From: Gnetum montanum
Lineage: Eukaryota > Plantae > Gnetophyta
Reading direction: 5' to 3'
DNA: 64,000 nt
NCBI GenBank assembly: GCA_015680685.1
Contig: MNCI01000135.1
Location: forward strand, 269,424 to 333,423
Part shown: piece by piece, positions 17,771 to 56,691 of the stretch
Layout of the letters: each line of letters begins with the position of its first letter
Numbering within the stretch: the first letter of the stretch is position 1
Program-made: the position numbers and the translations under genes
Notes under the pieces: generated by a model
What the model saw: only the letters and a program-made list of their open reading frames with translations
Told to the model about the DNA's origin: nothing
Databases searched by the model: none

Positions 17771-17809
17771 GCTGGTACAACTTCCTACACTTTACCCTCT
17801 ACAAGGCGA

Positions 17810-18630: not shown

Positions 18631-18899
18631 CATTAGTGTTAAGCATTGCATCAGACATGTTCCATGCATTGCCCACCTCAATGGTAGATTCCACTATGCC
18701 TATCACACAAATCACTAACGTTGCATTCATAGCCAAAATAAGCACAACCCATGTAGGAGAATGATATGATGATAGTAAGGCATACCTTCTATAGGGTGAG
18801 CTCCACAACATTTGACTACTGCACAAAAATATGCAGTGCATAAATGTTCATGGTAGTATGTCATCATGGGTGCTGACATGCTATGTCGCAGATCCTATG

Positions 18900-20440: not shown

Positions 20441-20549
20441 CCATCAATCACACATGGTTCTACAAGCAAGAGAGTGAGAATAATTCTAACTCCCCCTTCC
20501 CCCACACTCTTTTCTACACCACCTAGGTGGGGATATTGTAGTCTTAGAA

Positions 20550-25505: not shown

Positions 25506-28500
25506 TGTAATTTGATGGGGATTTAAAGGCAGAAATAATTGCCTTGTTTCCTCAACAAAATTCAATTTTGAGGTCATATTTTGACAAAAATCTTAAACTT
25601 ATTTTTCATGTAAGGTAAAGTTCAGAGCTTGCAAGCTATGAATTTTATCGGGTCAATGCATAAGAGTGAAAAGGCCAAAAACACTAGCAAATGTTGTAGA
25701 AAAAATCTCACACATTGGTAGCCCACATGTTGCAATTTTGGTTTATGAAAAATTCCAAATATGTTGTAATTCCAAGCCCAAAAGGTCAGAAACACTAGTA
25801 ATTCACATGCTATATATTTCAACCATCAAAAGTATTAAAAACATGACAAGGAATGTTAGAAATTTGCTAGAATCAAATCAGCAGAGAATCAGTAAATTCA
25901 TGGCCTATTTGAACCAAAATTTTCATCATTTTGAGGGCTTTTGGATCATTCAAAACTCTTCCAAAACTTAAAAATTTTTGAGCACAAAGATCTAAAGGTC
26001 CAAAGCCATTTTCCAATGTAGATCATTAGAAGCACCAAGACCCCATTGCAATACATAGATCAAGTAAATCAGATGTACTTGGAAGCATTGTAGAACATAC
26101 ACACTACCCATCCATGAGCTAAATTCTCATCATTATCTTTGTAGAAAGCCTTGAAATGATTATAGTTCCACATTTTGTACTCTCTTACCCTGTACTTATT
26201 ACAAAATTAACACAAATTATTTGTAGTCTTTTTTCATATTTTTTTATTATTTTCTACAACTATATTTGGTGTTGGCTCTATTTATTATGCATTTTCTCAC
26301 TTGTTTTCATCGATATTTCATCTCATTAATAGACTTTCAAAGTACTTAAGTGATCGGCAAGATTGTTTAAGGCATGTTAGATCCTTCCAAGGCCCATGGA
26401 TCCTAGGCTTAAAACTATTTCACACTAAGATCTTTCATTTTTTAGCACCCAAAATTTTCAATCCTGATAGTTTTTTGGCACTAGAATGATGACCTATGTT
26501 AAACTTTTCAGCCCAAAACCTATTTGAAAATTCTCTACCTATTTATCCCTTCGCCTGTTAGCATGTTTAACATATTAAAAATTATTTTTGGTTTTTTGCA
26601 ATCCTAGCATATGACATCATAGCTAGTTTCTTTCAACACTTATAAAAAGTTAAAAAAATTTATTACTATTTTTTTACAATTTCAGTGTATAGTGCTGCCC
26701 TTGGTCCCTGCATCTTACAACTCAAAAATTAATTTGTGCTATTGCAGTGCACAATGCTCCCTTGTTCCTTGCATGTTATAGTTAAAAGATTAATTTTCAC
26801 AATTGTTGTATGCACTATTCTCTCTGTTCCCTGTGTTTGCATGTTTGTAGTTTTCCTTTCTATATATACTAATGCCTAGTTGCATTTTTCTTATACATTA
26901 GAAAAAAGTAAAAAAAAAATTATTGTTGCAATTACAGTGTGTGTTATTTTTTCCATCTATGTTCTCATGTTTTAAGCTTAATTTACCTCATACATTATAC
27001 TTCACATGCTATAAACTCACATATTGCAACCCTCTATAAGCTATAGCCTCACAAGATGCACTCTCATAGGTTGAAAGTTTCATATGTTGGGAGTCTCACA
27101 AATTGGAAGCTTCAAAAATTTTCGAAAACATGAAAATATTTGCCTTATTTACACAATACCTTAGCCTTACATTGTTTATGCCTTTTTGTTGTTTAACTAT
27201 TCTACCATACAATCTTGTCCATATGGCCTCAAAACAAGAAGTTGTTTGCATTTATGATCCTAAGGATCCAACTATAATAGAGAGTAGACAATCCCTCAGG
27301 TGACTAGGATTAGGCTTGTCCTATGCAAACATTAATGAAGAATACTATGATTTTATTTGTGCAAAAATCTAAGTTGGATTGCTTATCCCATGCATGGAAT
27401 TAGAATCCAAACATTAGTTTGAGATTATTCATAGAAATAGGAAACAATATATATTTCCTCCTCATACGTGCATGTTAGCACAACTAGTGGATATAGATGA
27501 AGCAAGTAAGGTAGTTAGTTTAGAATAAATTGAAGAGAATTAGGAAGAGTTCAAAGCTGAGTACAAGCCAAATACATTCTCAGGGGATCTTTTGGAATGA
27601 TCTCTTCTAGAGGTGACCATCTCTAACTCTACATCCCCTATCTTAGTAATAAAGCAATAACCCCTTGTGGCCTTTGCAAGCTAAGTGTTATAACTTGCTT
27701 TTTTATTTGCTTCTATGTTCACCTTAATGCCTAGTACAATAACACATGAATCTCAATTAGATTCCCACCTTTTCTTCCCATTTACACCAATACATTTTGC
27801 AATCTAGTCTTGTTTTTTGTGATCATCACCAATGGTATGTTCCACATCACCTCCTTTTGTCATCCCTATGGGCTCTTCTTTAGCATCCTAGATATCCCAA
27901 GTCTCCCATACTTTCTTTGTTCCCTTCATTCTGCATGTTCTAGCTTAAACATCATTCTTCTTATTTAATCTCCCATCAATGGTGGTTACACAACCTATCT
28001 AGTCCATACCAATGCTAATTGCATGGCCTCAAGCCATTCACCCTCTTTCCTAACCATTAGCATAAACATTGTAGCCTACAAGAGCATCCCAAGATTTGGA
28101 TCAAGCCTTCTAAATGATCCAAGACTTCACCAAAGAGTTGCAGAAACTTAAAGCTAGCACTGCTTAGATGGTAGAAATTATGGATTTTTACCAAGGAAAT
28201 TCCATTAGCCCTACCATCCTATAGATAACTCTCCCTACCAGCATCCCAATACTCCACTTTACCAAATACAACTATGAGGATGATTTTAATGCTTATCTCA
28301 TTACTTTTTATTCTGAGTGCCCATTATTACAAGCCTAGCTATATATAGTGATGTACATCTTCCATATGGCTTTGACTAGGATGCCTTGGATTGATACCAT
28401 ACACTATCTAGAGGTTTCATTACCTTTCTAAATGACTTGATTACATAGTTTGTTAACCATTTCAAGTATAACTTAAAGCTTGATACAATATTAAATCAAA

Positions 28501-29464
28501 TTATGAAAGTAAAATAGGGGCCTCTTGAACCTATCTGAAAGTTCATATAGATATGGAATGCTATTCTTAATGAAATTCCCAAATCCATCTTTAAAACACA
28601 TCTTTTGGCCATCTTCAATGGGGTGTTTAATAATTTCATGAAGTTTAATCTTTTATATTTAGATCCCTGGTCACTTAGTTAGGCCTCTTCCCATACCAAA
28701 AACATAGAAGATTGCACAAAACTAGTAATGACTTAGTTTACATAGCATATAAAAACCAACACATGAGGAGGGATAGAGATAAGGGAAAATAAAATCATGT
28801 GGCCAAAGAGTGGAAGATAACACAGGGATCAAAGAAAACATAACGTAAGGCCCCTATCATAGTTCCTTAGCCATCAACATTTAGTGCTTTCACATCCAAC
28901 CCTTCAAAATGTAACTTTGAATGGAAAGCTAGGTCAAGTACACAAAGCTACCCATGAAATTATTAGAGCTTCTTAATCATTTGGTTAAGAGTAGCAAGAT
29001 CCAATATAACCAACTATCTAAGAATGCTTGTAACAGGCATGATCACTTATGTGAGATTGCAAAGCATCCAATCATAGCCACAAAAGATGATCCTCCCATG
29101 CCTAAATACTTCAAAATAAACTGATTCTATGACTACCATTAGCTTCTTGACCATGATACTGATTTTTCTTTGCCCTAAAAGATGATAGATGGTGGAGAGT
29201 TAGTTCCAAATGCATTTAAGCTAGTAGGTCCTTAAAATCAGTCCATGCAAGTGTACAAAGATCCTCTTAATGCTAATAATTATGCATTCTCTATTACCAT
29301 CTTCGATGTACATGATAAGCCTAAAACTATTAGGACATCATGTGTGGTTTAGGTACCTTCTCATCATGAATAGACTTTTAAAAGTTTAAGAATTTTGTTT
29401 GTTATAAGGATACCACCACCTATGGCTCCCAAAGAACCTTTTTTCATTTAAGTACCCCTCTACC
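25506..29464 (+). mobile_element. Element B: truncated A/C-family Tat element (5' LTR ~25506-26469, PBS 26476, gag ~27222-29464)
   Basis: U5 similar to those of A and C; degenerate PBS TGGCACTAGAATGA; gag MASKQEVVCIYDPKD..., PHFTKYN; gag stops where the C LTR begins. LTR start uncertain. Confidence 0.8.
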
Positions 29465-30920
29465 TATAAACTTGCAACTTGAAACAACACAAAGAAAATA
29501 CATGTTTCAACCTTTTCAACATTATAACCTTCACCCCTACACTCGAGGCTAGCTTTTCATTGTAAAACTGTGAAGATTGTAATCCATGAGATCCAATTTC
29601 ACATACTTTAACTTTTGAGGCTAAAAAATACCTTATAAGTTGTTATAGCCTCACTTTTCAAGTGAAAAAAGTTATATCATGTTTATATTTAGGCTTGAGA
29701 AGGCTAAAAATTCATAGGGAATTGCCAAATTTGGCATTTTCATGGGTTTTTGTTCGGTTATAGCCTTAGCTACGCTAGAAACACCTACTCCAAGCATGGA
29801 TGGTGTTGGATTTTTATTTTCCCAATAAAACCCAATGTAGTTGCCATCAAAACCTAATGTGAATGTCTCAAAGCCAATGTTGGAGTTGTGGAGGTTTCCA
29901 TCACATTGAAGTGGTTGGGGATTTCATTCTTCACACAACTTGAACATTACTACATCATTCTAATGAGGATCCCATGAATTCAGTGTAGTTCCCATGAAGA
30001 CCTGTGTGGATGGATGAAGCTTGTGTAGTTGAAAAATTTTGTTTACTATATATGGTATCCAGCATCATTTTGGTGCCTTGGAGGCATCAAAACTTACCAT
30101 AAATGGAAACTACATTGGAGGTAAAGGCATGATACACTTACACATGATTCCAATCTATTAGTAATCATGGTAGAAATTTGTAGTAAAAAATCAAAAGTCA
30201 TGTGACCTATAAAAGTCCATCTCAAATACCTTGAAGAGGTTCTTCTACTTTTGAGCTCTTAGCATCCAAAAAGCTTTTGGCAATTCTTGAGCATGAGAGC
30301 CTTTGAAAACCCCAAGCACCTATAACCTTTGAGGATTATCTGAGATGTTTGGAGAAATGTACAAATACCTAAGCACAAAGACTCTTAGCATGGTACTCCC
30401 TTTGCAACAAATGTTATTCACACACCTTACCCACCCCACCCCACACACCACCCCACCCCACCCCCCCCAATGTTGCAAATCTAGAAAAGAAACTAGTAAG
30501 TAGTTTTAGGTTTAGGAATTAGGAAGCACCTAGACCATGGAGTTGACTATAGCATGCAAACTACCAACTTCAATAGGTTTCAAACTTCATCAAAGCCACC
30601 ACATTGTACATTTAGGCACCATTTTTACACATTCCAAACTTCTTATTTTCAATATTTTATTGTAACAAAGTTTACAATTTATTTGTTATGCAAATTATTA
30701 CAATTTGATTATGTGAATTTTTTTAAGTTTTAGATCTACATTATTTTACAAGTTACCTACCCTTGTTCATACTCTTCAAGTCCCTGGGTGATTGACAAGA
30801 CCATCTAGGGTACCTTTGAACCTCTTTCTTGAAGGCCCTTGGAATCCAAGGTTAAAACTATTTCACACCTGGAATTTTCTATTTTTCAACAACTAAATTT
30901 TTTAGGTGTAATAGTTTTTC

Positions 30921-30937
30921 TAGCATTAGAAGGAGGG
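30921..30937 (+). promoter_or_regulatory. PBS of C (tRNA-Asn, degenerate)
   Basis: TAGCATTAGAAGGAGGG after the LTR end. Confidence 0.8.
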
Positions 30938-31707
30938 ATTTCATCCAAGCTCTTTGGAAAAATTTTGATTTTCCTTTCAAAACAAATTTTTCATAATTTC
31001 TAAAACTTAAAATCATCTTGAAAATTTTTGCCAAAAAAAATCAGCATTGCTACCTATTTTCTTGCAACTAACACCTAGCGTTGTCTTTCTAGGTGATTTG
31101 GATTTTTTGTTAAATTTTTATAGTAGTTTGCTAGTTTCTACAAAGCTAGCATGGTTGCTAATTAAGCCTACCTTTCTATGTTCCAAAGGACAAAGTTACT
31201 ATATTTCAACCAACCAACCAGCCTACTATGGGATTATGTAGAAAAGATAGCATTGGTCTCCCCCAAGATTCCAATGTAGCTCTCAAAAAGTCCAAGTTTA
31301 ACATTTATTTTTTTAATGAAATAATCATATTATTTTCCAAGAGAGGGTACCTTAGAATGGTATTGTAGGGCAAGATAATGATTGATTGCTTACCCCATTC
31401 CACACCCCCCTGGACTTTCTTAGTGAAACCCGCTATTGGCAAAGCCAACATAGTTGTTTTTACCAACATCAAGACTATTACATTTTTTCCAAAGTGCAAT
31501 GCACATCCTTGTCACTAGAACCTATACAGGACCTATAGTTATAGTTCCCAGTAGTTTTTAGTAAAAATCCCTCTTACACCTTATACAATTTCACTTGTTG
31601 AAATTTTTCTTACTTAATTAATTGATTACAAAATTTATTAAATCAAATTTAAATCAATGATAATTTCTTTCATCTAGTTAATAGTTTTTCCCCTGAATTT
31701 GATAGAC

Positions 31708-34700
31708 ATGGAATCTGACCAAGATGTAGTGAGGGTCTATGATCCGAAAGACACAATAGTAGTTGAGCGTAGGAAATTACTTAGATAGAGGGGTCAAAGT
31801 TCAAATTTTTTTGTTATAAATGAAGAACACTATAACTTCATTTATGCCAAAATCCAAGCTAGCATGCTCATTCCATGTGGGAAAGCTAAATCTAAATGTG
31901 AGTATGAGCTAATCCACCACAATGGAAAGGAGTACATTCCTTCCACATATGAAAAAATACTATTGAACAATACTCATAATTGCATTCTATCTCAATTGAT
32001 CGAGATGGATGAGCAAGAAGGGAAGTTGAACACAAAGAGCCAACATGAGAAATCGGACAAGTTCAAGGCTGAACCTAAACCTGACAACTTCCTAGGGAGC
32101 CTCTTCCAATAATTGGCTCCTGAAGCCATTGTAACTAATTTTCCTCTCTTGTCTCTTCCATGGGACAAGGGCATCAAACCTCTTCTCCCATTTACCCTAC
32201 CATGTCTGGGTTAGCTCCTATCACAGTGGTTCACCATGCACAATCGGTACCCTAGATAACACCCCTCTTCTCCTCTATGCCTTTCATCAAATAGCCTCAG
32301 TCTGCACAGTCATCACCCATCATCATAACCACTACACATCCATTATCTATGTTGGAAGATCCCATAGTGGGAAATCAAGTGATCCAAGGGTCACATATAC
32401 CTTTTTCCCTTTTGTGTCATAAGTGCCAACACAAACCTCCTTTTCATTATTTAACCCATCTACAACAATGATTACCCAACCTCTTCCCTCTGTGCCATAA
32501 TCCATGGTAAGGCCATAGGTCTTGCAACTTACACCACAATCATTTTTCTATATGCCATAACCTACAGGGATGCCCAAAGGCTTGGATTAGGCCTTTCACA
32601 TGATCCAGAACCTTATAGAATAGTTATGAAAGCTTAAGACTTCTACAACTCAAATAGTTAAAATAAAGGATTTCTATCAAGATAATCCTATTAGTCCTAC
32701 TATCCTGAAAATAACTCTTCCTCAAGCATTTTCATACCTCAATTTTCCAAGTATAATGGTGAAGGTGACCCCATCTCTCACCTCAATTTTTCCTATGTTC
32801 TTAATTGGGAAAGTCTTGGATTAGTACCACATATTACTAAGAGGATCTATCTTCTTACTTGAGGACCTAATATCATAGTTCATCAACCATTTCAAGTATA
32901 ACTTAAAACCCAACACAACTCTTGACCAATTAATGAAGGTCAAGTAGGGACACCTTGAGGTAGTGCAAAAATTTATACAATGATGGAATGTTCTATTGAA
33001 TGAGATTCTAGAACCTATAGCTAAAACACATATTCTCACCATCTTTAAGGGGATGGTTAACAGCTTCATTAAGTCCAAAATTTACTACCTATACCTATAG
33101 TTACTTAGCAAAGCTTTTTTGCAAACTAAGAACATAGAGGATGCTATTAAGACCAATCATGACCCTACCTACATGGCATATGAAAACCAACACATGCAAA
33201 AAAATAAGGAGAAGAGGAAAAAGAATAAGGAGAAGAGGAGGCAAAACAATGTAGCCATGGCCCCTACAATCAACAACAAACCATCAACATCAAAGGCCTC
33301 TACATTAGGTAAACCTAGGCCCAGTTTTGAAAGAAAGACTAGTCTAAGTACACTAGGTTACCCCTCAAACCTTCTAAATTTCTTGACCAATTTCCAAAGA
33401 GTGGGAGAATATAATATAAATATATGACAAAGAATGTCCATAAGAGGCATGATTGACTATGCAAGATCATAAAAAAACCCACTCTAGCAATCAAGGATGG
33501 CCCACCAATATCTAAGTACTTTAAACTTGATCGCTTTTGCCACTATCATCAACTACTACATCATGATACTAACTTCTACTTAGCCCTCAAGGGTGACTTG
33601 AAGAAAATGATAGATGATGGTGAGCTAGTTCATGATGCCTTCAACCTAGTCAAATCACAAAACCAATCTATGCAAGTTTACAAGGACCCATTGAATACCA
33701 ACAACAACCCTTACATCATAGCGACATTCAACATAAGTAACAACTCAAGACCTACATTGGAGTTCTTTGTGATTCAGGTACCTCCTTGTAATGATAGGGG
33801 CCCTTCAACTTCATTTAGTTCAAAGCATTATTTTTTTGTAAGGATATCATTGCCTATGCCTCCTAGGGAACCTTTGTGATTAGGGTGCCCCCTTTTTTCA
33901 CAACCAAAAAAACAACTACAACTAAATGTCCTCTTGCAGTGGCTAATACCATGACTTCTTAGTAACACAATAATAAGAAATAATTGATTAAACAACATAA
34001 GAAGTCTACATCAAAGTGTAAAATAAAATAAAACAATCAAGCCAAGGCATGGAAGGAGGTATTCCCATTGAAGCCCACTACCATCTCATCCATTTTCATG
34101 AGCTCTAAAACTCAAGCTACTTCAACTAGTTAACCAAGGGAGGATCCTAAGCCGCAAAGGAAGGGAAAAAAGGCTAAGCCACAACCATTAAAAAATGAAG
34201 TTTACATCTTGGGAAGCATGAACAAAGTCAAAGATAATAAGAATGAAAAATCAATGGCCAATGACAAGGACTTCCTTAAGGTGATGGAAAATTTTAAGTA
34301 GTCTTTGAAATAAAAGAACACATCTCTTAGCTTGTGTAACTTGGCAATGACTTTTGCTACACATCATAAAACATTAGTGAAGATGTTGACCTCAATTCCC
34401 TTCAATGAGAACATCCCTACTAGTGAAGAGTCCATCCATGTGGTGATGGTACCACCTTCACCAAAGGAAGAAACAAAGTCAACTACATTAGTATTTTGTG
34501 ATAGCTAGGTCAAGACCAACCCCTAGGATGGTAAGACAACCAAGGCTCCTTTCTTCATAATGAAATGTGGGGCAATATAAGGTACTTAGTGTGCATGTGG
34601 ATGATGGGACAACCACCAATATAAGGTACTTAGGTCTAATAGAACACATTTAGCATATCTCCAATTCTGCTCTTAAATTCTTTAATGGATCTAAGGAGGC

Positions 34701-35163
34701 AGTTAAAGGCTCAATCTCTTTGAACTTTGTAGCAAGGAAATAATTCCCCATAATAGCCAATTTCTTGGTGGTGGAAGAGATACCAATATTTAATCTCATC
34801 TTAGGGAGGCCTGGCTAGCTTAATTATGAGTTGTTTCCTCACCCCTTCATCAAGAAATTTACCTAGATTATTAGGGAGGTAAAATAATTATCAATCATGA
34901 TAGTGCAGCCCCCTTGGTAATTAACAACATTGACATAGAACAAGGATCTAAAGTGGACTTTCCTTCCATTGTTAATCACAAAGTTGAAAAGCCTAGTAGA
35001 GTGGAAGAGGCCTAAACAAATAACAATAGAACCATGAATGCACCATGGGAAGATCTCCCCTTCAACATGGATAGTGAGGGAACATGGAATATGGGATCAT
35101 GTAATGTAGGCCCTATAGCTTTCCTAATCTTTCAAAGGTTAGGATACATTTGCATAATTAAAT
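31708..35163 (+). pseudogene. gag: gag-protease of C
   Basis: MESDQDVVRVYDPKD, PQFSKYNGEGDP, FCHYHQLLHHDTNF knuckle, VHVDDG, FNLILGRP. Confidence 0.9.
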
Positions 35164-36059
35164 GTATGCTCCTTATGTACTTACCCTATTTCCACAATTG
35201 TATAATGCCATATCTTACTTATGTTGTCTAATTTAACCTTGTTTGCCTTTGTCTAGCTCTATTTAGCACATAACCTATGGTTTACTTGCATTTATCATTT
35301 ATGTCTTTAAGCCTTTTCTTTTTCCAAAATGTAAAACCAAGAAAATATCATAAAAATTTTAAAATCGAAAAAAAATATATAGAAATTTTAAAATATAAAA
35401 CTTAAAAAAAAAAATTTTCTCTTTTAAAATGCATGTCTTACCATCAACTAAAACTAGCAAAATAGATGACCCTACTATGGCCTAAGATTGGCAAAATGCA
35501 ACGGCTTGCCATGGCCTAAAATTGGCAAGACAATGGCCTATGAAGGCCTTAAGCTGGTGGTCCACCATGGCCTAAACTTGGCAACATTCCCACAACTTGT
35601 TTATAGCCATTACACATTAGTTGACCTTTTTGTTGGCCTACTTAATGTTGATTTTACTTTACCAAATATCGCCATATAATAGCATGATTCAACAAATATG
35701 GCCTAGCATATCCTCATAACATGAAAAAAACATAAAACACATAGAATGCATAAAACAAAAAATGCTAGAAGATATATAACAAAATTAAAATCTTAAATAA
35801 ATAATAATAATGAAAATCTCCATAAATAATAATAGTATGATACAAGTCCAATCAAGAACGAGTGTATAAAACAAACAAACAAAATTCCCAATAGCCATAG
35901 CTACAACATGTAGCAATAATGTAAGAAAAATAATAAGTGCCTCACAAATAAACCATGCCTAAGACTAGCCACAACATCATGACATAATCAAAAACAAGAA
36001 TAAATTGGAAACATGACCAAAACAAATGGAACTAGTGTACAACTGGAGGTGGGGGGGCG

Positions 36060-36061
<2 letters not shown>

Positions 36062-36091
<30 letters not shown>
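36062..36091. repeat. (GA)n microsatellite preceded by a G-run
   Basis: Directly visible in the sequence. Confidence 0.95.
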
Positions 36092-36093
<2 letters not shown>

Positions 36094-37765
36094 CTCCAAC
36101 ATCATCACCACTAAGGCCATTGGTATCACTTGGTACCTATAACATAATAACATATTTTTAATCAATAGTCAACATAATATGAAACCAAATCAAAAACTAA
36201 ACAAAGCTAAAATATAACTAATTAAAAATAAAAAAACTTGGAAAGACTTCAAAGTAGTGTCTTCTATAGGGAATCTTTGAAGACCAAACTCTAGATGATG
36301 GAGGATTTGGTCTTTAGTCATGTGAACCCAATCCACTTCCTCAAGATTAACACTAGTTAGGATGTTTCTCTCATCGATATTAGTCCATGTCAGTGGCTTC
36401 CTTGAAAATTTGGTAGTAGTCACCTCTCTAGAGGTGGTAGTTACCTAACAGGTTGGGGAATTAGCAACCACTAGAGAGCCTTTAAATCGCTTGAAGGCAT
36501 CATTTGCGTGGATATCCTTCATGACTAGTTCTAGCTTGCATCGTTTGATGAACTCCTTCTACAACCACTTAAGGTAACTCTCAAGTTTGGCCTTGTACTT
36601 TTTCTTATGGTTCTTTTGTGCCTAGCCCCACTTAAGAACACAAGCACAATAATCTCTCCACACTCTTTGGCCTTACAAGCTACTAAGTTCTACTACATTT
36701 TCTACTCTACATGGTGCTTGGCAAGAGCAACCTTATAATGAATGATGTTCCAATACTACACCCATTAAATCTCTTTGGTTCCTAATGAGTTCCTATGAGA
36801 ATCCAAAAATTCCTTACGATCCTTGAGATCTCCAATCTCCTCGACCTATTTCTTATTTTCCTTCTTCAACACTACAACACACTCCCATAGGAACTCATTG
36901 GAATGTTGGCATTTCCATAAGGTTGTTTCACATGAAAGTGCACATTCATTGGTACTTTCATACAACCATTTTGGAACATTTTTTACTTTAGGTGGTAGGT
37001 TGGGTAATTCATTGAGCTCAACATCATGTTTGAAGTTCCATCCAACCTTTGACACTACAATCAACACAACCAAACATGAATGCATTAAACCAAGTAAATA
37101 ATAAATGATAAAATGAACAAAAAAAATTTAAACCATTAAGACCATAAAATCATAAAAACAACATGAAATAAGAATACATAAACTAAAATAATTAAAGGAA
37201 AAACGAACTAAGATTCTTACCAACATTAGGAGTAATCTGTTGCAACTGATTGATCATGTCTTTGGTCATCCCTCACATGAACTCTATTTTTTCTAGAACC
37301 TTTTCCCATGATTTCATGTGAAACATGGAGGTTGAGGCATCAATCTGAGGTTTAGGAGCTACAACAAGCATGACAAAAAACTAATAGTTAAACATAGGCT
37401 TAAACATAAAACTACAAGATGTAACACATAAAATGAAAAATCATAAGTACTTGGAACATCATCCAAGATGACGATGGAAGGTTCACCTAGTGGTGAATCA
37501 CCATATATAGCATCAAAGGCATCCATGGTGGCATTGGATAGCCCCTCATCCTCATTCCATTATAGCATCTTCTCTACAAATTTCTATTCTACCTCCACTA
37601 TTGTTGCTTGGGCCACTAGTTCTTGTTATTTACCTACAAGAACAATGAAGATAATACATAGAGCCATTGAGCATATTTTTCCTAAAATCAAAACAACAAC
37701 ATACCTACATAACATGAAACATAAATACCAAATATGTAAATAGCATAACATAATTAAAATGTACC

Positions 37766-39855
37766 TATTGGTGACTATTTGGGACTAGACCACCAATGTT
37801 GGGGGCTTTTGGGTCTCGTGACCTTGGGGTCATGGGATGTGAAGGTGTTCTTCAAATAAGGTTTAGGTGCTTGCTAGTCTCTGGTAATACCAAGGCCCAG
37901 ATACCTCTAAATAGACTTCATGGTTATGAAATGAATTGAACATTAGTATGTGTTTACTATTGTGAATGTTGAAGTGGTTGGGTTGTGTATGAAACTATAA
38001 TTGGCTATCATAAAAGAAATTTAGCAAACTTTGTTAAATATTGTGAGTTGTTGAAGGTTCCTATTATGTCAAATCACTTTGTCTATATAGTTCCTATAGT
38101 ATATTAATTTTAACAAATAAAATTTCAAAAAAATGTTTGAGCACAATTATGCCAATCTACTTCTAATTATCTCCAAAGAAAAAGTTCCTCAAAAAATAGA
38201 GCGAGATACAATGGGTTTTAGAAAGAGAAAAGAAAAGAAAGTAGATTTATGTGGAATCTCAAAAATTTAAGCAACATAAATTGACATGAGAAAACACTTT
38301 GCAATAAAGCTATTCTAATTCAATCTAACTATGAATTGTCCAAACCCTCTGAGCTTAACAAGAAATTTCATAAAAGATGATCTTATTACACTACTAAAAA
38401 TGCTATGTAAATGACAAAGTACAAGCTTCTATTTTGGCTAATTAATAGTTTTCAAGAATTGCATTCAATAGAGACTTCAAAACATTTGACAATTCAAGAT
38501 TGAAATACCAAGGAAATACACTTTAAAATAATGAAGCTATTTCAGTCATCTCAAAATACCAAAGATTTTCGTAGATTTCCAATGCTCAAATAAGCAATTT
38601 CATTAAGATAGTACTATTAAAATTCTCAAGATGCTTTTCTACAATATAAGCTCTTATATGGAAAATGTTATATTATTATTATGTTTCAAATGTTATATTA
38701 TTATTATTATTTGTTTAATATCCATCCACCTACTTCTTGAGTTGATTTCCATGTGACACTTGTTTAGAATCATTTTTGTATGTGCAAGCCTTTAGGCATT
38801 CATGAATAATATCAAGAATAGAGTTGAAGAACATTGGCAACAACAATAGTTTCTTAGGTGTAATCATGCCTCCTCATCTTGCATTATTCATAGCAGATCT
38901 TTCTTTTCAATAGCTACAAATGTTTGTCAACCTCTAGAAGATCCAAAAATGCGCTGAATGTTGAGGTTTCTTGAATTAACAGTAGGGCTAATACCACCAC
39001 CATAGCGAAAGGTTTGTTTCCATGGGCTACGGTTAAGATTTTTGTTTCTACAATAGTGAAGCAAACCCTAGCATTATTCTCTTGTTATGGTTTAGTCTCA
39101 TTCCTACCTTTCATTGAAGGATTTTAATAGATCTGATGTGGTAGAGGCCCCTCAACCCTAGTGTAATGTAAATCCCTCAACATGGATCTAAAATTAGATC
39201 TGAAATTGATGCTAATCTGATGCAAATGAAAAAGAAGCTATAAGATGCCAGAGGAACATAGAGCAATGAAGGTAAAATTTAAATTCAAGATTTCAACTTT
39301 GTATTACCAAATTCATCTAAGCAGCATTTGTAAAGGAATCACTACTAATGTTGTGTTTATTGATGATGTTGAGACTACAGTGCCATCATTGGTAGGGGAG
39401 CTTCTGTAGAAATGACACTCTGCTTACTGGTATTAAGATTTGTGAGGTTACTTATATATATTATTATTATATTTTTTTTCCTTTTCTTTTTACATTTTCT
39501 TTGGTTTCTACTTATGTTAACTGTGACTGAGTTTGGGCTTGAATTTGGGTTTTCTTATATTTTGTTGGCAACCCTACCCTCAATGTATTAAAACGAAACC
39601 AACAAAAGATTGTGTTTTCTCTTTCTCTCAAGTTTCTAGTTAACATAGAGCCTATGCTTACCACTCTAGAAATTTGATAACACAATATTAAATTTCTTTG
39701 GTCCTATAGGTCTTCCAGGGTCTTCTATGTACATGAAAAATTCAAGTGGAATATTGGACTTTCAGAACATAAACAACTTAAAGATATCAAATTCATTTTC
39801 ATCCTTTGTGATAAAGTTATAAATTAAAAAAAAAATTAGCTAGGCAATGCAATAT
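37766..39855 (-). mobile_element. Insertion F: D/E-family LTR-derived fragment inside the antisense gene of C
   Basis: 37766-~38670 aligns with the D LTR (TTTAGGTGCTTGCTAGTCTCTGG...CAAGGCCCAGATACCTC); the antisense gene resumes at ~39856. Right half unexplained. Confidence 0.7.
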
Positions 39856-42800
39856 CCTACAATTAAAATCCCCCTTTTATGCTTTGATTAGTAATCAAAG
39901 CTATATCACCTGGACATGACTAATTCCAATAGTCTTCCTCTGAAATCAGAGGCACATTCTACTACTATTTCATTAAATGGTCTTATGTGACAATAGTACC
40001 TATAACCATATGATGTGCTTGACCAAGTTTAATGACAAGCCTCCTCTTAGTGGGTTGCTCAATGACTGGTGTTGTCTCTTCAACAATAGGTCTCTTCAAC
40101 TTTGCTCTAGCTACTTCGTTAGCTTCAAGCATGTAACTCCTTGGCCTTCTAAACATTCTTGTAGGAAAATTGGGGCTCTCTTCCCATGTTGTTATGGGAA
40201 GCACAAGACACACCAATAAAACTCTAAGTGGTTATAGAAAGTGATTCCCAAATGTTCTCTAGTGGGTTTTGAGCCTGAATGGTTGGAAAAATATGTTTTA
40301 CCCAAGGCTTTGAAAGTTGGGATGGACCTTGGCTTACCAATTATCCTTCCTTTTGCACCATCAAGAGCTTTGCAAACCTTTTAAGAGATGCTACAAAGAA
40401 TGCATGGTGCATGACATATCATTACAAGGTTATCCTAGAGTTTCAAGATCTTCCCCCATAGCCTAGAAGCCAAATGAGTAGTCCAGTTAAATTGAGAATT
40501 CATCATGATGACCTTTTCCATGGTCCATGCCTACTCAATGCCTAGAATATTCTTTTGTGACAATAGGTTAGGAAAATCCTAGGAGTGGGACAATGGGTAC
40601 ATCTCCTTCACCTCCATAACCTAGTAGTTATCCAAGGATAATCCAAAGTGGTCTTGAAAAGTGTTTAGCTAGTTTTCACCTCCTCCTTATAGCCTACATC
40701 TTTCCTTGGCTTGGTGAAAATCTTCATCCCCTCACAATAGACACCAAAGAGGTTATTGAAGGTAGATTCATTAATGGCCAAGATGATAGGCATACCATGA
40801 ACCTAAATGATGAATTTTTTTTCTTCTTTGTTAAAGGAGTTAATATATTCATCATATTAGGGGTAGGGATAAGTGGAATAGGGGCCATGAACAAGTAAAG
40901 CAACGTTGAGTTGATGATCCTTGCTTGGACCTCCTTAGGCACTTGAATGACCAACTAGTCCTACACTACCTCCACATTGCCCAACTTGAGGATAAGTGTC
41001 TTCTTAGCATGTCCTAAAGCAATTACAGAAATGGTGGATCATGATGTAGCCCCTACAACATAACAAAAATGACCCATTAGCTTGGGCATAGGCACATCAC
41101 ACAATACCTAAAATAATAATATCATGATAAAAATGACAAACATTAAACATAGAAATTAGAAACAACACTCATAGTCACATTGTTAAAATAAATCAAAGCC
41201 AACATTGACTAAATAACTCTCATAGAAACAATCAAAGACAACATGACTAAATAACCATACAACTAGAAAACATTAAAATTGCAAAAAAATAAAAAAAAGA
41301 AAAAAAGAAAAAAATAAGCATTCTTACTTAACCTACTTGAAGAAAGTAGTATGAGGATCCTAAGGGTTATGTGTGTCTCTATGCCAAGATCTAATTTACC
41401 CCACCACACATGGATCATTCCATTAGCCACATACCTATGTTAAGCTTTTGAATAGCATGTGGTATACTTGGAAAAGTCACCTTTGAGTTGCTACACCACT
41501 ACAAGCCTCACTTTGGGGCTTTTGTAAAAGACTTTCAATGTTGTTTGGGCCAAGGAAAAGAGCTGGTCTCTTTTGATAAACCCTTTTTCATCAACCTTAT
41601 ATTTGCAAGCATACCAATTCAAGCAAAAAATCATTAAAACCAAGTAGCCTAATGAAACTAATAAGTAAATGAAAAAAAAAAAAGATAAACTTAAAATCAT
41701 GCTTATCCTTCCACATGGTAAATAGTACCAAGAAGATTCTGAAATAGTATGTTGACATGGTGGCCAACCAGTAATGTGTTGTTGACATTATACTAGATGA
41801 ACTTTGACATGTCCCAAATCTTTAATAGCTTATGAGTGACTATAGTATATATGCCATCAAGTATTTCACCTTTAGCATGTGTTTTAGGATTATCATAAAT
41901 GAATTTGATGATCAAGCTAGCAAATCAAGGCAACAGGGTTTCTATGATGACAACCACTATGTGAGATGTTAAGTATGACCATATCATCACACTAAAGTTT
42001 TGCAATAGAGAGGCTAGAAACTCCTTCACCCTTGGCTTGAACCATAGAGAGCAACATTCCAACACCATGTGGGTAGGAGGAATGTTGGGCCTTGGTGCAT
42101 GAATGCAACACAAGAGGCTAACTAGCTTGATCACCACCAAGCTTAGCTTTAAGAAGTCCCAGCACAACCCAAAAATGACAATCAAAACCTTGCATGACCA
42201 TAATTAAAATATAAAAGTCGTTAAAAATTAAAATAATTAAAATTACAACCATAATACCAATGTTTCAATATCAAACTAAATAGTAAAGTATACCACTTAC
42301 AATCCTTAAAGCTCAAAACAAGACCTAGCAAAAATTGGGAAAAAGTCCAAACAACATAAGAACACTGATGGTAACTTCATGGTGGAAAAATACATAAAAT
42401 TACAAAAAATTTATGTAAATGGTTTGAAACCATGAGAATTAGCCTATACCAATATTTATTGTACAACAATAACAACCATAAAGTTCCAACTTGAATTTGA
42501 CAAAGTTTCCACTAAAAATCCTACTTTACGGTGACATTAGCTATAGTGAAAACTCTAAGGAGGCTAGTTAAAAAATTTTGAAAAATTTAAGTGACTATTA
42601 AAAAATAAAATAAAACCTATAAATAACCATAGGATTTTTTAAAATTGCAAAAAAATTACCAAAAATAGGCCAACATTGCCCATACAAATTGAGGGGTTTG
42701 TAGTTACAATTGTCAAAACCACAAATGTATGGGGTAGTCAACATCAATCAAAAATGACAAATTTGCACTAGAAAAATATTTTCTAACTTTAAATACTATG

Positions 42801-45800
42801 AACACAAAAAATTCAACCAACATTAACATCAATGTTATATTATCAAATTGGGAAAAAAATTCATAAAACAACCTAGAAACATTTCAAAATTTCATGAAAA
42901 ATCCAAGATTATAGAAAACTAACTACAGTAAATCACTTTAAAAAATATAAAAAAATATTGAAAATATCTAAAACATATTTCAAACCCCCCACATAGCCTT
43001 ATTCATCCCTAGGAAGCTAAGATGTAAGTAGAAAAAGTTTTTCTAAGTGTCAATGCTACCCAATTTAAAGGGGGTAAAACAACAACAAAAAAAAAGGAAA
43101 AAAAAAACCTAAAACTCATTGGGCACTAACTTACAAAAAAAAAATCATAGAAAATCAACCATAAGTCAAAATTTAGTATTTTCATAGCTAGTTTAACTAG
43201 GAATATAAATAATCCATAACTCCAAAAACCAAAATTTCAAGTTGTTTTCTTATAAAAAATAAAAAGCTGTGGTTACTTTGACAATAAAAAAACAAAAACA
43301 AAAGACCACTATCCGCTGACTTGTGGAAAAATTTGTAGAAAATTGATTGTAAGTCAAAACTAGTGGTTCATCCACTATTTTAACTATTAAACAAGATCCA
43401 GCAATCTTATGGCCTCAAAAACTAAAAATTCCTAGCCATTTTCTTATGAAAAAATAGAAAAGAGGTGCTACTTTTTCATAGGAAACAACAAAAATTACAC
43501 AAAATAGGGCCAAAAAAATTTATAACCTAACATAAATCAATCTTAAAGCCAAATCAATGCTATAAGCATTCAATCAAGATCAAAATATAGTGTAGGAATT
43601 TTTCAAAAATAAAATTCCATGTAAGTAACAAGTCAAACCAACCCCCAATGCCTAGGTTCAAAGCAAAAATAAAATGGCTACAATGGTGTACTTGGGAGTC
43701 ATAGATGAAGACCCTTCCCCCAATATGGGTTGTGGAAGATGAGAGAGACCTTTGGTAGTAGTGTCTACCTCCTTTAGAGCTTGATTTTTGTTGATAGCTT
43801 CCCTTCTCTTTGACATTCTTAATTGATAGTGCAAAACCCTTCAATGCTATTCAATCTCCTTGTAACTATGCTCCTCCCTAGTGGGTTTTGGCCAAGAAAT
43901 GCTAGGGATGGGTGGGATTGAAGCTAGGATTAATGCCAAAGCTCTTGTGATATGCACTACTTCATAGAGGAGGGTGAAGAAAATTGATTGTGGTAAAATT
44001 GTAATGTGGGAATTGTCCCCAAACTTATGCATTTTCAACCTAAACACCTTGCTTCAAATGCCCATTCTACCTACATAGTAAACTACAAGTTCAAAGGGGG
44101 AAATTTTCAATCAAATTGGGATGATGACAATTTTGGAAACTAAACACCATTTGAACTTGGGTGGGCCTCACTAGGCACCTCCCAAGCATAACATCAAAAA
44201 TCCCAATACTGTGGGATTCACAACCCATACCGACATCTATGTTGGGGTTAAGCCTTCAAAAAGCCTCAAATATATTCCCAACTTTAATTATTTCCAAAAC
44301 ATACTTCCTAACCATCCATTCATAATACATTGAAGCCAAAAACCCCCTATTCTAGAATTGAAAATTGGAGGTTACAACGTTATGAAGAAATAAACATCAA
44401 GGAAAGTCAAACCCCCTAAAAAAATTTGCTATTTTGGGTAACCATGGTATCCAAGATCTTAACAACACTAGCCAACATTATTCCAAGGGAGATAGTACTT
44501 TCCAACATTAAACAAGCCTTAAAGCAACTCCAAACTGGTCACTTCCAATCCTAAACCCTAGTTGGAGCCTTTAGTAGCTCTAGAAACTTCTAATACCCAA
44601 GAAAAAGTGTAGCAAACCACTTGTATTGGATGAACCACATTGGAAGGCATCCCAACCAACCATGCTATCCAGTGTAGTCCTAGCATGGTTCATAGGGGTT
44701 TAAACATTAGATGCCATAAATAGCCTTTCAAGTTGCATTTTTTAACCTTCACATGTTTTCAAGGTTCAAAGTCATCCCATAATGTCAAGTAACTAGGAAA
44801 AATTAGGTAAATATCCATTCTAATCTTGCAACCATACTAAGAAGAACCCCAACCATGCTAGCCAACATGGCCCTAGTGTGGCTGGATGGGGTTTGACCAC
44901 CAAATACTAGAAATGACCTTCCAAATGATGCATCTTAGCCTTCAAGCCTTCTCGAAGCCTCTAGCAATCTTAGAACACTATATAATAGGCAAAAATAAGT
45001 CAAATTTCATCCCACCCATCCTCGTCACACTAGGAAAGCCCTCATCCATGTTGGCTAGCATGGTCACAATGTGGATGCTCTATGGAAAACCAAAAATAGA
45101 TCATAGATAAGCCAAATCAACATTCCAACCCACCCTCCTAATTCCAAAACCTTACCAAAGCATTCAAAGATCACCAAACCCTAGAAATTGAATGGAAAAT
45201 AGCCAAAGTTCACCATACTCCTCCTATCTACACTAGGACTATGCTAGCTAGTGTAGTCCAAGGGCAATTAATCACACCAAGGCTTAAACAACCTTCTAAA
45301 GTAGCAAGTCTAAGATTAAATCTTGGCCATATGCATTGATAACCCTAGTAACCCAAAAAACTTAGTTGATTCATCATAAAAACTCAATAAAAGATAAAAT
45401 TCAAATGCAACCATGCTAAGGGGGATGAGAGCCATGCTATCCTACATGCCTCTAGCATGGTTGAGATTCCAAACCAGTTTTGTTAGTACCACAACACTCC
45501 AAATCATCTAGAACTTGACTCAAGATGCCCATAATCTTGCCAGAGCCCATTGAAATCATGAAATCATGGAAATTAAGGAAAAAATAACAAAGATTTATCA
45601 TACCCCCTCATCCACATTGGGAATGTACTAGCCAGTGTAGTCCATGGGGTATGATTATATTAATACTCAAACAACCTTCAAACTTGACGATTTCAAGCCT
45701 AAACCTTGGCCATGAACATAAGTAGCCTTGGGAACTGAAACAATTGGTGAATTTATCATAGGAACTCATCAAAAACTAGGAATCAAGTGTAACTATGCTA

Positions 45801-47055
45801 GGGATGTGGCTCTAGTGTAGTTAGGATTCCAAAAAGATTTTACTAGCTTTGCTTCACTTTGAATGGCCTAACACCTAATTGGGAAAGCTTAGAGTCTTGA
45901 AACTTTGGAGCTTGCTACATCTTTGTCTTATTTTGACCTTCAAAAGTCTAAATCCTATCCATCCATAATGGGACCACCTTCAACTAAGTTGGATAGTGTA
46001 GCTATGGGCTACAAGGTCTCAAAACCCACTTTTGGTCACTTATTTTGATCTCCAAATGATTAATTCACAACCCTGATGCCTCTATGCTATCTTGTGAAGC
46101 CCATAGAATATAAATTTTAATCTTGGAGTGTCACAAATTTAGTTTTACCATGGAACCACACTAGGGCCACACTAGCTAGCTTAGTCCTAGTGTGGGTGGT
46201 AGTTTTGGATTACATTTGTAATCTTAGGAAGGTTAAATAAGCATCAAAATTAATTAATATTTATCCCTAGTCCATTGCACTACCAATACAGACTATCAAG
46301 ACTCGAAAATTAACTATGATGAACCCAAAATCCCACATGTTGACATTATCCATGCTAGGGCTTATCCCACCCATGTGGGCTAGCATGGATCTAGTGTGGG
46401 TCTAGCATGGATGCTAAAGGGAGCCTCATTTTTCCCTTAAAAAACCTTAAAATGATCTCTCCAAGTGCCCAAACTCTTCCATCAACCTTACAGCTTATCA
46501 CCATGGGTTGCTAAGGCTTTAAATTGGCAAAATCTAACCTTAATTGACCAATATTAACCATGTTTTATCCCATGCTTACCATCTTGATTGGTTTGGCCTT
46601 GTTTCATTATGTTTTTTCTTGATTCAACATAATTATACATCATTGACCTTTATTTCCCTATCATATTATGTCATTGAGCTTCTTTTTTGTCATTGTAGCC
46701 TCATTTGATTCTAATTTCACAAAATTATTTTATTCTTTGGCATAATTTAACCTTAATGAACTAGGTTTTGCATCAATTAACACTATTATACATCACTGTA
46801 ACCTTGTTTTACCATCTAGAATATCATTAAATGGAGTTTAACCATCATTTGGCCTTCATTTGACCTTATGTAGCCTTTATTTTATCATATTTGTTTTTAC
46901 CTATATCTTATAACTTTTGTTGGCCTTGTTTAAATGTTGTTAGACCATGAAATAATATGTTTTGGATTATCCTTGCTTTATTACTAAATTATTTTACATT
47001 ATTTACTCATTTTATCACACATGTGACACTTAATGTGCTTATGGTTGATATGCAG

Positions 47056-47603
47056 GATTGGAGTATGGAAACCTGGAGACAAATTAGTTTACCTTTAAGC
47101 CTAATTAGACCTCATGGTATTGTTGAGCAATTCATAAATATTAATCATTTAGATCTTGAGCCTAAGAGCCCTTTTGACTAGATAGCCTTGTTACAGAAAT
47201 CTCTTGAGTGGCATGAGAATCTACTTAAAACCCTTAACCTTAAGTTTGGCGACATTATGGAAGACTCTCTAGTTGAGGTTCTTGTTATGACACATAGTGG
47301 TGAGGAGAAAATACTAAAACTAAGTTTCTCACTAAAACCTTAACAATTTCAAGACATTACCAAGGTCCTCAAAGACAACATTATTATCTTTCCTTAATCA
47401 TATGAAGATATGCTAAGTCTTGACTCTTGCTTAGTACAACATAACATCATAATCAATACTAGTATTAAGCTTGGTAGTTCATTATAAAATCATGAAGCTA
47501 TACCAAGCCATTTTCATTAGAGCTATTGATTATGTAGAATGTATATCCAACATAGTGGTAGTACCTAAGAAAAATGGGAGTGTATGTATTTGTACTAATT
47601 TTC
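47056..47603 (+). pseudogene. pol: N-terminal RT fragment of C
   Basis: GDIMEDSLVEV, SYEDMLSLD..LVQHNI, ISNIVVVPKKNGSVCICTNF, then the D LTR. Confidence 0.9.
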
Positions 47604-49344
47604 TGTTGGCAACCATTTGAGATGCGATTGCCAACGAGTTGCATCAAATAGGATTTAGGTGCTTATTGGTCTTTGGTAACACCAAGGCCCAAATACCTCC
47701 AAATAGACTTAGTAGTTAAACGTGAGTATTTTTTTGCAATTGTTAATGTTGAAATAGTTGGGTTGTGTATAAAACTATAGTTAGCTATCATGAAAGAGAT
47801 TTAGCCAATTTTGTAAAATACTATGAATTATTGAAGATTCCTATTTTTTTTATCACTTAGGTTATATGGTCCTTATAATACCTACTTACAGCAAATAAAA
47901 TTTTGCAAAAATCATTTGAGCATAACTTTACCAATCTACTCCTAATTTCCCCCAAAGAGAGAAAGTTCCACAAGGAAACTAGAAATAGAGCAAGATTCAA
48001 TGGAACGAGAAGGAAAAGAAAATAGATTTGTGTAAAAATCTCAAATATTTGAGCAAGGTAAATTGATATGAGGAAACACTTCATAATAAAGTTATCCCTA
48101 ATTCAATATCTATGAATTGTTCAAACTTTATAGGCTCAAACAATTAATTTCTTAAAGATAATTCTACTATACTACCAAAAATTGTTGCATAAACTACCAC
48201 ATATGAGTTTCTATTTTGGCTAGATAATAGTTGTCAATGATTGCATACAATAGAGCTTTCAAAGATTTGATAATTTTTGATTGAAATAATAAGGAAATAT
48301 ACTTTAAAAATCAAAAAGCTATTTTAGTCCTATCAAAATACCAAAGATTTTTTTAAAACCCTATAGACTATTGAATTTCTCAACTAGCTTGTCTATAGTA
48401 GAAGCTCTCTTACAGTAATCCTAATAGTAGCCTTAAACATTACATAAACATAAAATTTTCTATTAAATTACTCTTCAGGATTTCCAACATGAGCTCTTCT
48501 ATGGCAAATATTAATAAGAGTATACTATCAGGCAACAAAGAACTATAAAAGTGATCCAAAAATCCCAAATTTAAATTCCAAGCATATACTACCTAAACCA
48601 CTAGCTATGGAACCTAAACAAAATAAGAAAGAATGAACTCATAGGATTAAACAAAGCAACCGAAATAATATCTTTAACAAGCCATCTTCCAAATAATTTT
48701 CCAAAATGTCTTCTTGATTCTTCCCTTTCAAAAAGCCCTTTACATTCTACCCTTGAAGCCTTTTTATAGTGGCTTTAAGGTAGTTAAAATTATTATCTAG
48801 GTTGGTTATAACCACTATACCAAAAAAATTATATACTTAACATATGTGTGATAGTTACAACCACCATGGAGACTAGGAAGTTATAGTTGACAAGTACTTG
48901 GTAGTTGACAAGTACTTGGTAGTTATAACTACAATGGTAGTCAATTGTAACTACTATAGAGAAAATAGTTATGGTGGCCAAATTCCCCATTTTTTCCTAA
49001 ATAATAGCTCTCTCTTTTTTTTGAAAAAAAAAATGCATAGAGCTAAACTAATTATATTAATGGTTACATTGTCAATTAAAAAAAAAATCTCTAGAGCATA
49101 AAATTTCATAAGGTAATGTCTCTTCATACAGGAAATGCATCACATTTACTAGAAAATCACAGATCCAAAGTTTTTTATTTTTCTTGGACTTAGTAATCAA
49201 TTTAAACAAAATGTTCAACTACCAAAATCCTCCCAGCCAACACTATACATGTCTCCACTACCACTATGTCATCCATCACATTCTCTACCACCCAAATGTA
49301 GGAAGACACATCTCTATTCTCTAGTAGATCATGTGTTAGCAACA
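47604..49344 (-). repeat. 3' LTR of D
   Basis: TGTTG...CAACA ends; homologous to 56692-58410; purine-rich PPT at ~49345-49365 on the minus strand. Confidence 0.93.
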
Positions 49345-50566
49345 TTGATGCCTCATTCCTACTTGATTTGGGAAAGACAAATGAAGGTAGTGCTCCTAAG
49401 ACTTTGGCCATAACTAACCACCCATGATAGTAGAAATTCAAACTACAACACCAATGGACACACTGAGGTCTCCAGAATATTATTGACAACTACTAAGGAG
49501 CACTTGCAGTTAGCAGTGAAGGTAGCCATTACAACATTAGCCTGATGTGCATGATGCTCTTGAAACCCTTGCCATTACTTTCAAATTCCAAGAAACCCTT
49601 ATGCTCAAACTTCGCGGTCATGAAACACAACTTCAAAAATAGCCACGATGGAAGAATAATGAAATCTAATCAGCCACTAGCATCATGGATGCCATGTAAC
49701 TACAGTAGAAGTCATAGTGGTCTTAAACTTAGTAGTCATTGGATGGTTATTATTGGTGAGGATAGAGATATTGTTGATGATGCATTTGCTACCACTGTGG
49801 ATCAAAACCCTACTGTTGTATTTAGTGATGTTTCCTTGTGGTGCTTTACATCCAGCTACTACCATGGATCAAAACCCTACCACTACCATTACTTGTAGTT
49901 CTAATATCAAGGGTAAATCTAGCATGTCTTGACTTGAATCCAATAGCCTATTTTTTTCTTTCTCAAATTATTTGCACACTTATGTGTTCATTTCTTGGTA
50001 ATTGGTACTTAGGTAATCTCCTATTCTACAAATTTTGGGGTTTTTATTCAACTTATTTAATCAACTATAAAATATTTTCTAGATTCAAATTTCTAGATCA
50101 AAATTTGCTATTTTTAGTTATGAATTACACACATAGTAGATCTACTATAGGAAACTTGAATAATATGAACAACAATTTTTATATTTGCTTCATTTGATTC
50201 TTGTTTTTCAACTTGGATTTTTCATTTTAATTCTAGCTAGGTGTTGCACATCCATTTCTTGCTTGATGCCATCAAGAATGGAATTTAGGACTGATTGTAT
50301 CTCTTTAAATTTTTCCAAAATTCAAACAAACCATATAATAAACAAAATCCCTTTTTATGCACGTTCCATCAAATTGTCAAATGTGACAACATTTCTTACC
50401 CCTTTTTTTTTTTGTTCTAATATCAGCTAAGAAATAATAATTTTATTAAACATTTACATGAAAAATAGAAAATCATTTTTGAGAAAAATTTTCATTAAAC
50501 TTAAGGTTTAATAAAATAAAAACCTAATAAAAATTTAAAGAACTATACATTGGGACTTTATACAAA

Positions 50567-56684: not shown

Positions 56685-56691
56685 AAAGGAC

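Follow-up and report, generated by a model that had tools for sequence, protein, structure and literature searches.

How does a gene with predicted introns persist, in reverse, within the polyprotein region of a long terminal repeat (LTR) retrotransposon, and is it a working part of the element or passive cargo? The question is raised by a 64,000-nt stretch of the Gnetum montanum genome (contig MNCI01000135.1, positions 269,424 to 333,423, forward strand), referred to below as the window. It consists of AT-rich plant DNA packed with decayed Ty3/gypsy elements. Two of these, A and C, are old, diverged and decayed Tat-type LTR retrotransposons. Each carries a collinear minus-strand gene of about 1000 codons, now preserved as remains only, in the spacer between protease and reverse transcriptase (RT). 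Our analysis leads to the conclusion that this gene is real, selected and element-borne.

The modelled exons total approximately 995 codons in A and 1015 codons in C, with a few ends off by one, neither copy being free of stops and frameshifts. The structure is as follows, where z compares an A–C alignment score with those of shuffled sequences:

11307–15931, minus strand: antisense gene of A, exons 15931–15855, 14694–14242, 14160–12972, 12850–12623, 12531–12394, 12302–11479 and 11384–11307
43692–43816, minus strand: C exon 1, weakly supported, 125 nt from an ATG, 41 codons plus 2 nt, phase 2, GT donor
41707–42159, minus strand: C exon 2, FCP1/NIF-type HAD phosphatase-like domain without catalytic aspartates
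41435–41602, minus strand: C exon 3a
41053–41434, minus strand: intron-like block of C only, 382 nt, GT..AG, T-rich, absent from A
40000–41052, minus strand: C exon 3b, middle domain with a terminal basic stretch, several frameshifts
37451–37633, minus strand: C exon 4, acidic, weakly similar to A
37221–37358, minus strand: C exon 5 (z 8.8)
36238–37054, minus strand: C exon 6, with the LPNLPP block and a charged C-terminal region (z 8.8 and 13.5)
36032–36136, minus strand: C exon 7, poly-proline followed by a stop (10 of 1000 shuffles as good)

The first-pass annotation of this DNA had claimed that A and C differ strongly at the nucleotide level while their peptides align, and that introns of unalignable sequence sit at equivalent positions. 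Both statements hold, and the peptides quoted in their support recur letter for letter (in C, the frames at 37007 and 40379; in A, those at 12255 and 13353). A blastn comparison of C with A yields only two short matches with E < 0.01 (54 and 69 nt), whereas tblastx recovers a collinear minus-strand chain with 40% identity over 155 aa (42182–41718 against 14717–14253) and further segments of 50% over 60 aa, 39% over 57 aa and 31% over 146 aa. Aligned coding blocks reach z 3.3–14.3, a level attained by none of 200 shuffles each, whereas the four short introns tested stay at z 1.0–2.1 and the 3' part of intron 1 at z 2.0. Exons are thus better conserved than introns, although this is visible in the shuffle comparison only, as raw identities in gapped exon and intron alignments are similar (0.53–0.66). 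The short introns are T-rich and GC-poor. Similarity in exon 4 is weak and not significant (69 of 1000 shuffles as good). The 3' flank also stands above shuffles (z 6.9).

Six predicted introns occupy matching positions, with junction phases 2, 2, 1, 1, 1 and 0 in both copies; junctions were chosen with reading frames in view, so this match is partly built in. Donors are GT at all six introns of A and at five of six in C, where the intron-4 donor has its GT one base before the modelled cut. Acceptors are AG in four of six cases in each copy, which gives 19 canonical dinucleotides among 24. The additional 382-nt block of C falls where A has a frameshift. The proposed exon 1 of C stands in part: it is in phase with exon 2, but the exon-2 acceptor is a non-canonical CTG, and the similarity to the candidate exon 1 of A is not significant (158 of 1000 shuffles score as high), the DNA of the two being unalignable.

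Is the protein itself under selection? Our codon analysis compares A and C pairwise over nine alignment-chosen blocks of the gene (685 codons, exons 1, 4 and 7 and unalignable parts excluded) and seven blocks of gag/pol (544 codons). Amino-acid identity in the gene is 35%. Identity at codon positions 1, 2 and 3 is 0.54, 0.66 and 0.38 in the gene and 0.66, 0.81 and 0.47 in gag/pol, i.e., both show the same pattern of 2>1>3. Nonsynonymous (pN) and synonymous (pS) differences in the gene amount to 0.40 and 0.75, and pN/pS is 0.53 (bootstrap 0.47–0.59), compared with 0.35 (0.30–0.41) for gag/pol; the gene evolves faster (pN 0.40 against 0.25). As pS is saturated, we disregard the Jukes-Cantor-corrected dN/dS of 0.11. 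Nonsynonymous and synonymous differences gain alike from decay since insertion, and hence pN/pS in the active lineage was probably below 0.53. The modelled frame has the highest BLOSUM sum of all six frames (987, next 503) and the fewest stops; the other five show pN/pS of 0.62–1.26 and more stops. Stops in the modelled frame are about equally rare in the gene (27 and 14 of 685) and in gag/pol (11 and 14 of 544), which places the decay of the gene at about the same time as that of gag/pol. We conclude that purifying selection acted on the protein, in agreement with the first-pass proposal of a selected gene and well away from a ratio near 1. Chance similarity of AT-rich DNA is ruled out by the shuffle scores together with the codon analysis. 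Coding on the sense strand was likewise rejected, since the mirror frame scores 503 against 987 and has the wrong position pattern. Synonymous saturation in both the gene and gag/pol fits joint inheritance and gives no date.

The gene had also been proposed to be a vertically inherited part of the family. Its membership in the family is supported, as it occupies the same site in two elements with only 53% identity in gag/pol. Element A is a single complete insertion:

5215–6402, plus strand: 5' LTR, target site duplication (TSD) ATGAT at 5210–5214
6409–6425, plus strand: primer binding site (PBS), which we take to resemble the 3' end of tRNA-Asn
6790–10488, plus strand: gag and protease, decayed, start approximate
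16612–19955, plus strand: pol, with RT, RNase H (RH), additional RNase H (aRH) and integrase (INT) in this order
22155–23697, plus strand: 3' LTR with 17 copies of the motif described below, TSD ATGAT at 23698–23702

Its LTRs agree in 916 of 1106 aligned columns (83%). The order of Pfam domains is RVT_1, RT_RNaseH, RVT_3 and rve, with aRH ahead of integrase, and this RT-RH-aRH-INT order is the retrovirus-like Tat layout. Besides the aRH in addition to its native RH, A has the LTRs, PBS and 5-bp TSD of a Tat element. The best database matches are 34–42% identical and are mostly angiosperm polyproteins, most of which contain the aRH family PF13456. Two tandem repeat arrays lie between integrase and 3' LTR (19990–21190), one with a unit of about 72 nt at 20.55–21.19 kb, and a 145-aa minus-strand open reading frame (ORF) in these repeats is repeat-derived.

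Element C is interrupted upstream of its aRH region, and of LTRs, PBS and TSD it shows a PBS-like site only:

30921–30937, plus strand: PBS, three mismatches to that of A
31700–35079, plus strand: gag and protease, decayed, aligning with those of A, start approximate
37797–39573, no strand: solo LTR of another family in intron 3 of the antisense gene, ends approximate, 72–76% identical to LTRs at 47.6, 56.7 and 61.5 kb
47153–47602, plus strand: start of pol (RT), cut by element D

Genomic reads extend the comparison beyond these two copies. In one DNA run, possibly the one from which the window itself derives, 41,214 contig records fall on the 8 kb of A, 23,280 of them less than 90% alike, and all 30 bins are covered. 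Summed depth, which is no copy number, is 841–4722 in the bins of exons 2–6, 1040 and 5723 in the protease and 6–193 in the central part of intron 1, and it rises to 36,830 in RT. This shows that many diverged relatives extend across the gene, in further support of its membership in the family.

The whole gene lies inside the spacer. Protein similarity between A and C ends at 10488/35079 and resumes at 16612/47153:

10489–16611, plus strand: protease–RT spacer of A, candidate sense intron, 6,123 nt
35080–47152, plus strand: protease–RT spacer of C, candidate sense intron, 12,073 nt, junctions not fixed

Both spacer ends are homologous between A and C (z 6.3 and 4.3). In A the spacer starts with AAG|GTTAAG, such that a GT donor overlaps the gag-protease stop, and a phase-compatible AG acceptor is found at the same place in both elements. 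Judged by these signals the spacer looks like an Ogre-type sense intron whose ends are not fixed.

What does the gene encode? Exon 2 matches the Pfam family NIF with E 0.009, below the Pfam cut-off. A profile built from five host NIF domains, two of them from proteins found with the exon-2 query itself, matches among 858 six-frame chunks solely exon 2 of A (E 5.8e-11) and of C (4.8e-10), with a best reversed-sequence control of E 0.35. Conversely, a two-copy exon-2 profile run with HMMER against 1.84 billion proteins gave four matches, two NIF proteins, one of them from Sphagnum, and two repeat proteins, which were dropped as relatives; a closer, element-borne relative was not present in this library. 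A word-indexed protein search with C exon 2 yielded 0 of 507 candidates, and among long NIF relatives, three of 7990 of which were scored, none was fused to a transposon domain, which is weak evidence of absence. The scaffold motifs are kept, but in place of every aspartate of motifs I and IV there are other residues, different ones in A and C: the D-x-N-G of host motif I reads N-I-M-G in A and K-L-V-S in C, and the DD pair of motif IV is lost from both. At about 10% per site, decay since insertion would be expected to do less than this. An active phosphatase is therefore rejected, and on sequence grounds we read exon 2 as an FCP1/NIF-type pseudo-phosphatase.

The middle domain in exon 3 was likened to the plant mobile domain (PMD) by eye only. 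Exon 3 ends Lys/Arg-rich in both copies (13040–12985 and 40080–40030, minus strand), resembling by eye a bipartite nuclear localization signal. The C-terminal part is charged, with no domain assigned, and the gene pieces show no match to PF04195 (TRP28-type), the pol–LTR region of A lying outside this Pfam scan. Two stop-free pieces of the middle domain found no usable match in the ESM atlas, where leads to bacterial HerA stayed under 0.9 and were rejected. A PDB sequence search gave nothing meaningful, metagenome scans gave 407 and 104 pattern matches, none of which was confirmed, and an Rfam search had 0 matches. An AlphaFold model from the two-sequence alignment (pLDDT 51.7, pTM 0.27) was not used.

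Gene and LTRs share a short motif, RACTAYRCT. Against an expectation of 4.05 it was counted 42 times, and its 32-bp dyad form was found 8 times where 0.97 are expected. The LTRs of A contain 5 and 17 copies (22), and 6 copies in A and 7 in C lie 5' of exon 2; there are 0–1 in exons and 0 in the pol of A. The gene-proximal copies are located as follows:

15110–16212, no strand: intron 1 and upstream region of the A gene, six motifs, one perfect dyad (15110–15141)
43864–45822, no strand: upstream region of the C gene, seven motifs, one perfect dyad (45791–45822)

The central YR fits a decayed CpG, and the occurrence of the LTR motif upstream of the gene suggests a common control of LTR and putative gene promoter. 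The upstream region of C (44852–46402) contains direct (45144–45421 and 45529–45803, 67%) and inverted repeats rich in the motif or its variants.

How, then, might such a gene be maintained? It is an established principle that splicing acts on the transcribed strand; the full-length RNA of an element therefore retains the introns of a reversed gene, and these return to DNA intact. With high confidence, the introns of the antisense gene would thus go unseen in the full-length RNA and survive each round of retrotransposition. With moderate confidence, the spacer would be an enlarged Ogre-type sense intron, such that unspliced RNA serves as genome and template for Gag-protease and spliced RNA for Pol; placed in a region that is skipped for Pol, the gene would come at no cost to the polyprotein. 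Taken together with an accessory regulatory role in general, this is the account that we regard as probable. A third step is more tentative, and we would not put it at an even chance: a promoter of the gene's own may lie at the pol end of the spacer, and the encoded protein may act at the motif arrays and keep both the LTR and this promoter active against host silencing, in the manner of VANC. The dead phosphatase could then bind phospho-proteins or act as a decoy, next to the PMD-like middle domain and the basic stretch. By analogy with VANC and with host PMD–phosphatase pairs, the product would be a nuclear trans-regulator, most likely one countering silencing at the motifs, which we hold possible with equal reserve. 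The complete version, a sequence-specific and self-amplifying anti-silencing circuit in which an Ogre-type intron is the bay for a spliced antisense pseudo-phosphatase–PMD gene recognizing its own LTR/promoter dyad, appears doubtful.

Several observations weigh against this account. Five of the 24 splice dinucleotides are non-canonical, and reads on A include no spliced RNA read for any of the predicted introns or for the spacer, RNA depth over the gene not exceeding about 1.4 per bin and strand in two oligo-dT runs; joints in a third RNA run join A-tracts and were treated as priming artefacts. Neither pol sequence beyond element D nor a 3' LTR of C was found in the window. At the first donor C has GA where A has GT, and a second aligned donor/acceptor pair 80–95 nt inside the spacer has mutually misfitting phases, with an ATG after the acceptor; for both reasons, pol may have had a separate start instead. 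The middle domain, searched as short, decayed pieces, matches neither PF10536 (PMD) nor any other Pfam family. The motif was defined post hoc from the same regions, and the LTR-like region of C has only one copy. Finally, five stop positions are common to A and C (two in gag/pol). CpG and CHG are strongly depleted throughout the window (observed/expected 0.13 and 0.34), a sign of heavy methylation-driven decay, which would explain the majority of the stops and of the non-canonical splice sites.

One rival is that the gene came from a separate DNA transposon (a Mutator-like element (MULE), CACTA or Helitron) or from the host and rides as passive cargo, its selection predating capture. An intron-rich structure does point to a DNA-level origin, PMD genes are described as mobile among MULEs, Gypsy elements and host genes (PMC5418596), and the gene evolves faster than gag/pol. 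Against cargo speaks its identical site in two elements whose synonymous divergence is saturated, with a stop density like that of gag/pol, homologous spacer ends and the LTR motif in its upstream region; moreover, no inverted repeat joins the spacer ends among the pairs listed (all 24 in A, 25 of 152 in C). We consider this explanation very unlikely. If instead antisense RNA were the main product, tuning the element via double-stranded RNA as raised for antisense ORFs in PMC7264820, protein conservation would be secondary, yet the codon-position pattern and the pN/pS value require selection on the protein. The strand bias that it might call upon, with exon 3–6 reads of one stranded run mostly on one strand, comes from other copies and is seen in RT reads as well. 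This is the most improbable of the explanations.

The main rival to the anti-silencing step grants that the gene is a selected part of the element and gives it a role outside transcription, either in bringing the integration complex into the nucleus or to its chromatin targets, or in Rev-like export of unspliced RNA, with a host factor binding the motif. Spacers of 6–12 kb must balance spliced and unspliced RNA, roles of this kind have been proposed for antisense ORFs (PMC7264820), and no DNA-binding domain was identified in the gene product. However, a motif present both in the LTRs and upstream of the gene fits a shared regulator, and host PMD proteins act in silencing (PMC5418596). On balance, this role is unlikely, and a probable accessory regulator encoded within a candidate Ogre-type intron is the reading that we retain.

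The remaining part of the window is likewise composed of repeats. Element D, which interrupts the RT of C, carries aRH before RT, and no clear TSD was found at its flanks:

47603–49347 and 56691–58413, minus strand: LTRs of element D, 87% identical, PBS at 56684–56668

A and D thus represent two Tat layouts within one window, which by PMC10508981 indicates a clubmoss or a gymnosperm outside Pinales and Cycas as the host. The co-occurrence of both aRH layouts is described for Ginkgo, cupressophytes, gnetophytes and clubmosses (PMC10508981; PMC13468544). A further element of the D family (61086–64000, plus strand) with LTR, PBS (62229–62245) and gag-like ORFs runs off the window. Element B (26300–29500) has a gag fragment akin to those of A and C and a stretch resembling an LTR end; no protease, antisense gene or pol was seen after the gag fragment. 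The region 58414–60200 behind D has a higher GC content, no similarity to the pol of A and a 110-aa frame at 59234–59566, while 4081–4511 is a self-complementary stretch of 430 nt (73%) resembling a miniature inverted-repeat transposable element.

Where does this leave the gene among known systems? In Ogre elements, a non-coding region between gag-protease and RT-RH-INT was shown experimentally to be spliced from a subset of transcripts (PMC6317226). Ogre agrees with A in having aRH between RH and INT and gag-protease set apart from RT-RH-INT by a region without pol coding. In contrast, its spacer, with a mean of 274 bp, is free of genes, whereas here 6,123 and 12,073 nt accommodate an antisense multi-exon gene. 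Ogre is defined by a tRNA-Arg primer site and is reported from angiosperms, whereas the type of Tat element with aRH before RT found in the window is reported only from gymnosperms and clubmosses. TatIII/lineage V elements likewise carry an antisense accessory ORF, one with a PMD (PMC4408406), which the middle domain found here resembles by eye. Their ORFs are plain, located at the 3' end and lack a phosphatase-like domain, and their aRH follows INT (PMC4408406); in A, aRH precedes integrase and the gene is internal. Retand TRP28 and maize Grande gene23 are antisense and family-wide, with an own promoter in the case of gene23, and have been proposed as regulators; as in A, tandem repeats lie between pol and 3' LTR (PMC11963269; PMC7264820). 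The TRP28 ORF of Retand sits between pol and the 3' LTR, while the gene described here precedes RT.

Boty of Botrytis is another Ty3/gypsy element with an antisense extra gene, brtn, which is reportedly multi-exonic and spliced. However, Boty is a fungal chromovirus, and brtn lies 3' of pol and encodes an unrelated protein. VANC of VANDAL elements is an element-encoded accessory protein whose short target motifs are repeated in non-coding regions of the element (PMC5735166). It belongs to a DNA transposon, and its binding and demethylation were shown (PMC5735166), whereas a comparable role is proposed for the gene described here. In Arabidopsis, MAIN/MAIL1 with PP7L and the PMD–phosphatase fusion MAIL3 link PMD and phosphatase domains to transposon control (PMC5418596; PMC7156037). 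These are host genes, whereas the domain found here is of HAD/NIF type and element-borne, with a putative PMD suggested by eye. The phosphatases of MAIL3 and PP7L belong to the PPP family. Ogre-related elements of orchids with an AlkB demethylase provide a further case of a Tat family in which a host enzyme domain became fixed; in contrast, that enzyme is active and encoded by a single ORF, and gag-pol is continuous (PMC9289625).

Antisense extra ORFs of Tat elements are known 3' of pol (PMC7264820; PMC11963269; PMC4408406), and the classification given in PMC6317226 places extra ORFs solely 5' or 3' of the polyprotein. The discussion in PMC7264820 regards as open what antisense extra ORFs do in plant LTR retrotransposons and calls for a search for antisense and spliced transcripts. 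Neither an extra gene between protease and RT nor a NIF domain in an LTR element was found in full-text literature, a coverage outside of which lie supplements, some earlier studies and most subscription papers. With a captured domain that can be recognized, a candidate DNA target and the unusual position of the gene, the family brings the regulator hypothesis within reach of a test. If the proposed functions are true, it would provide a possible independent case of a PMD joined with a phosphatase fold, in a gymnosperm Tat lineage, and an anti-silencing circuit in an LTR retrotransposon that is sequence-specific and self-amplifying. As it stands, we describe a natural gene that keeps its predicted introns while nested in the polyprotein region of a retroelement, and that is new with respect to known Tat antisense accessory genes in position, intron content, domain and shared motif.

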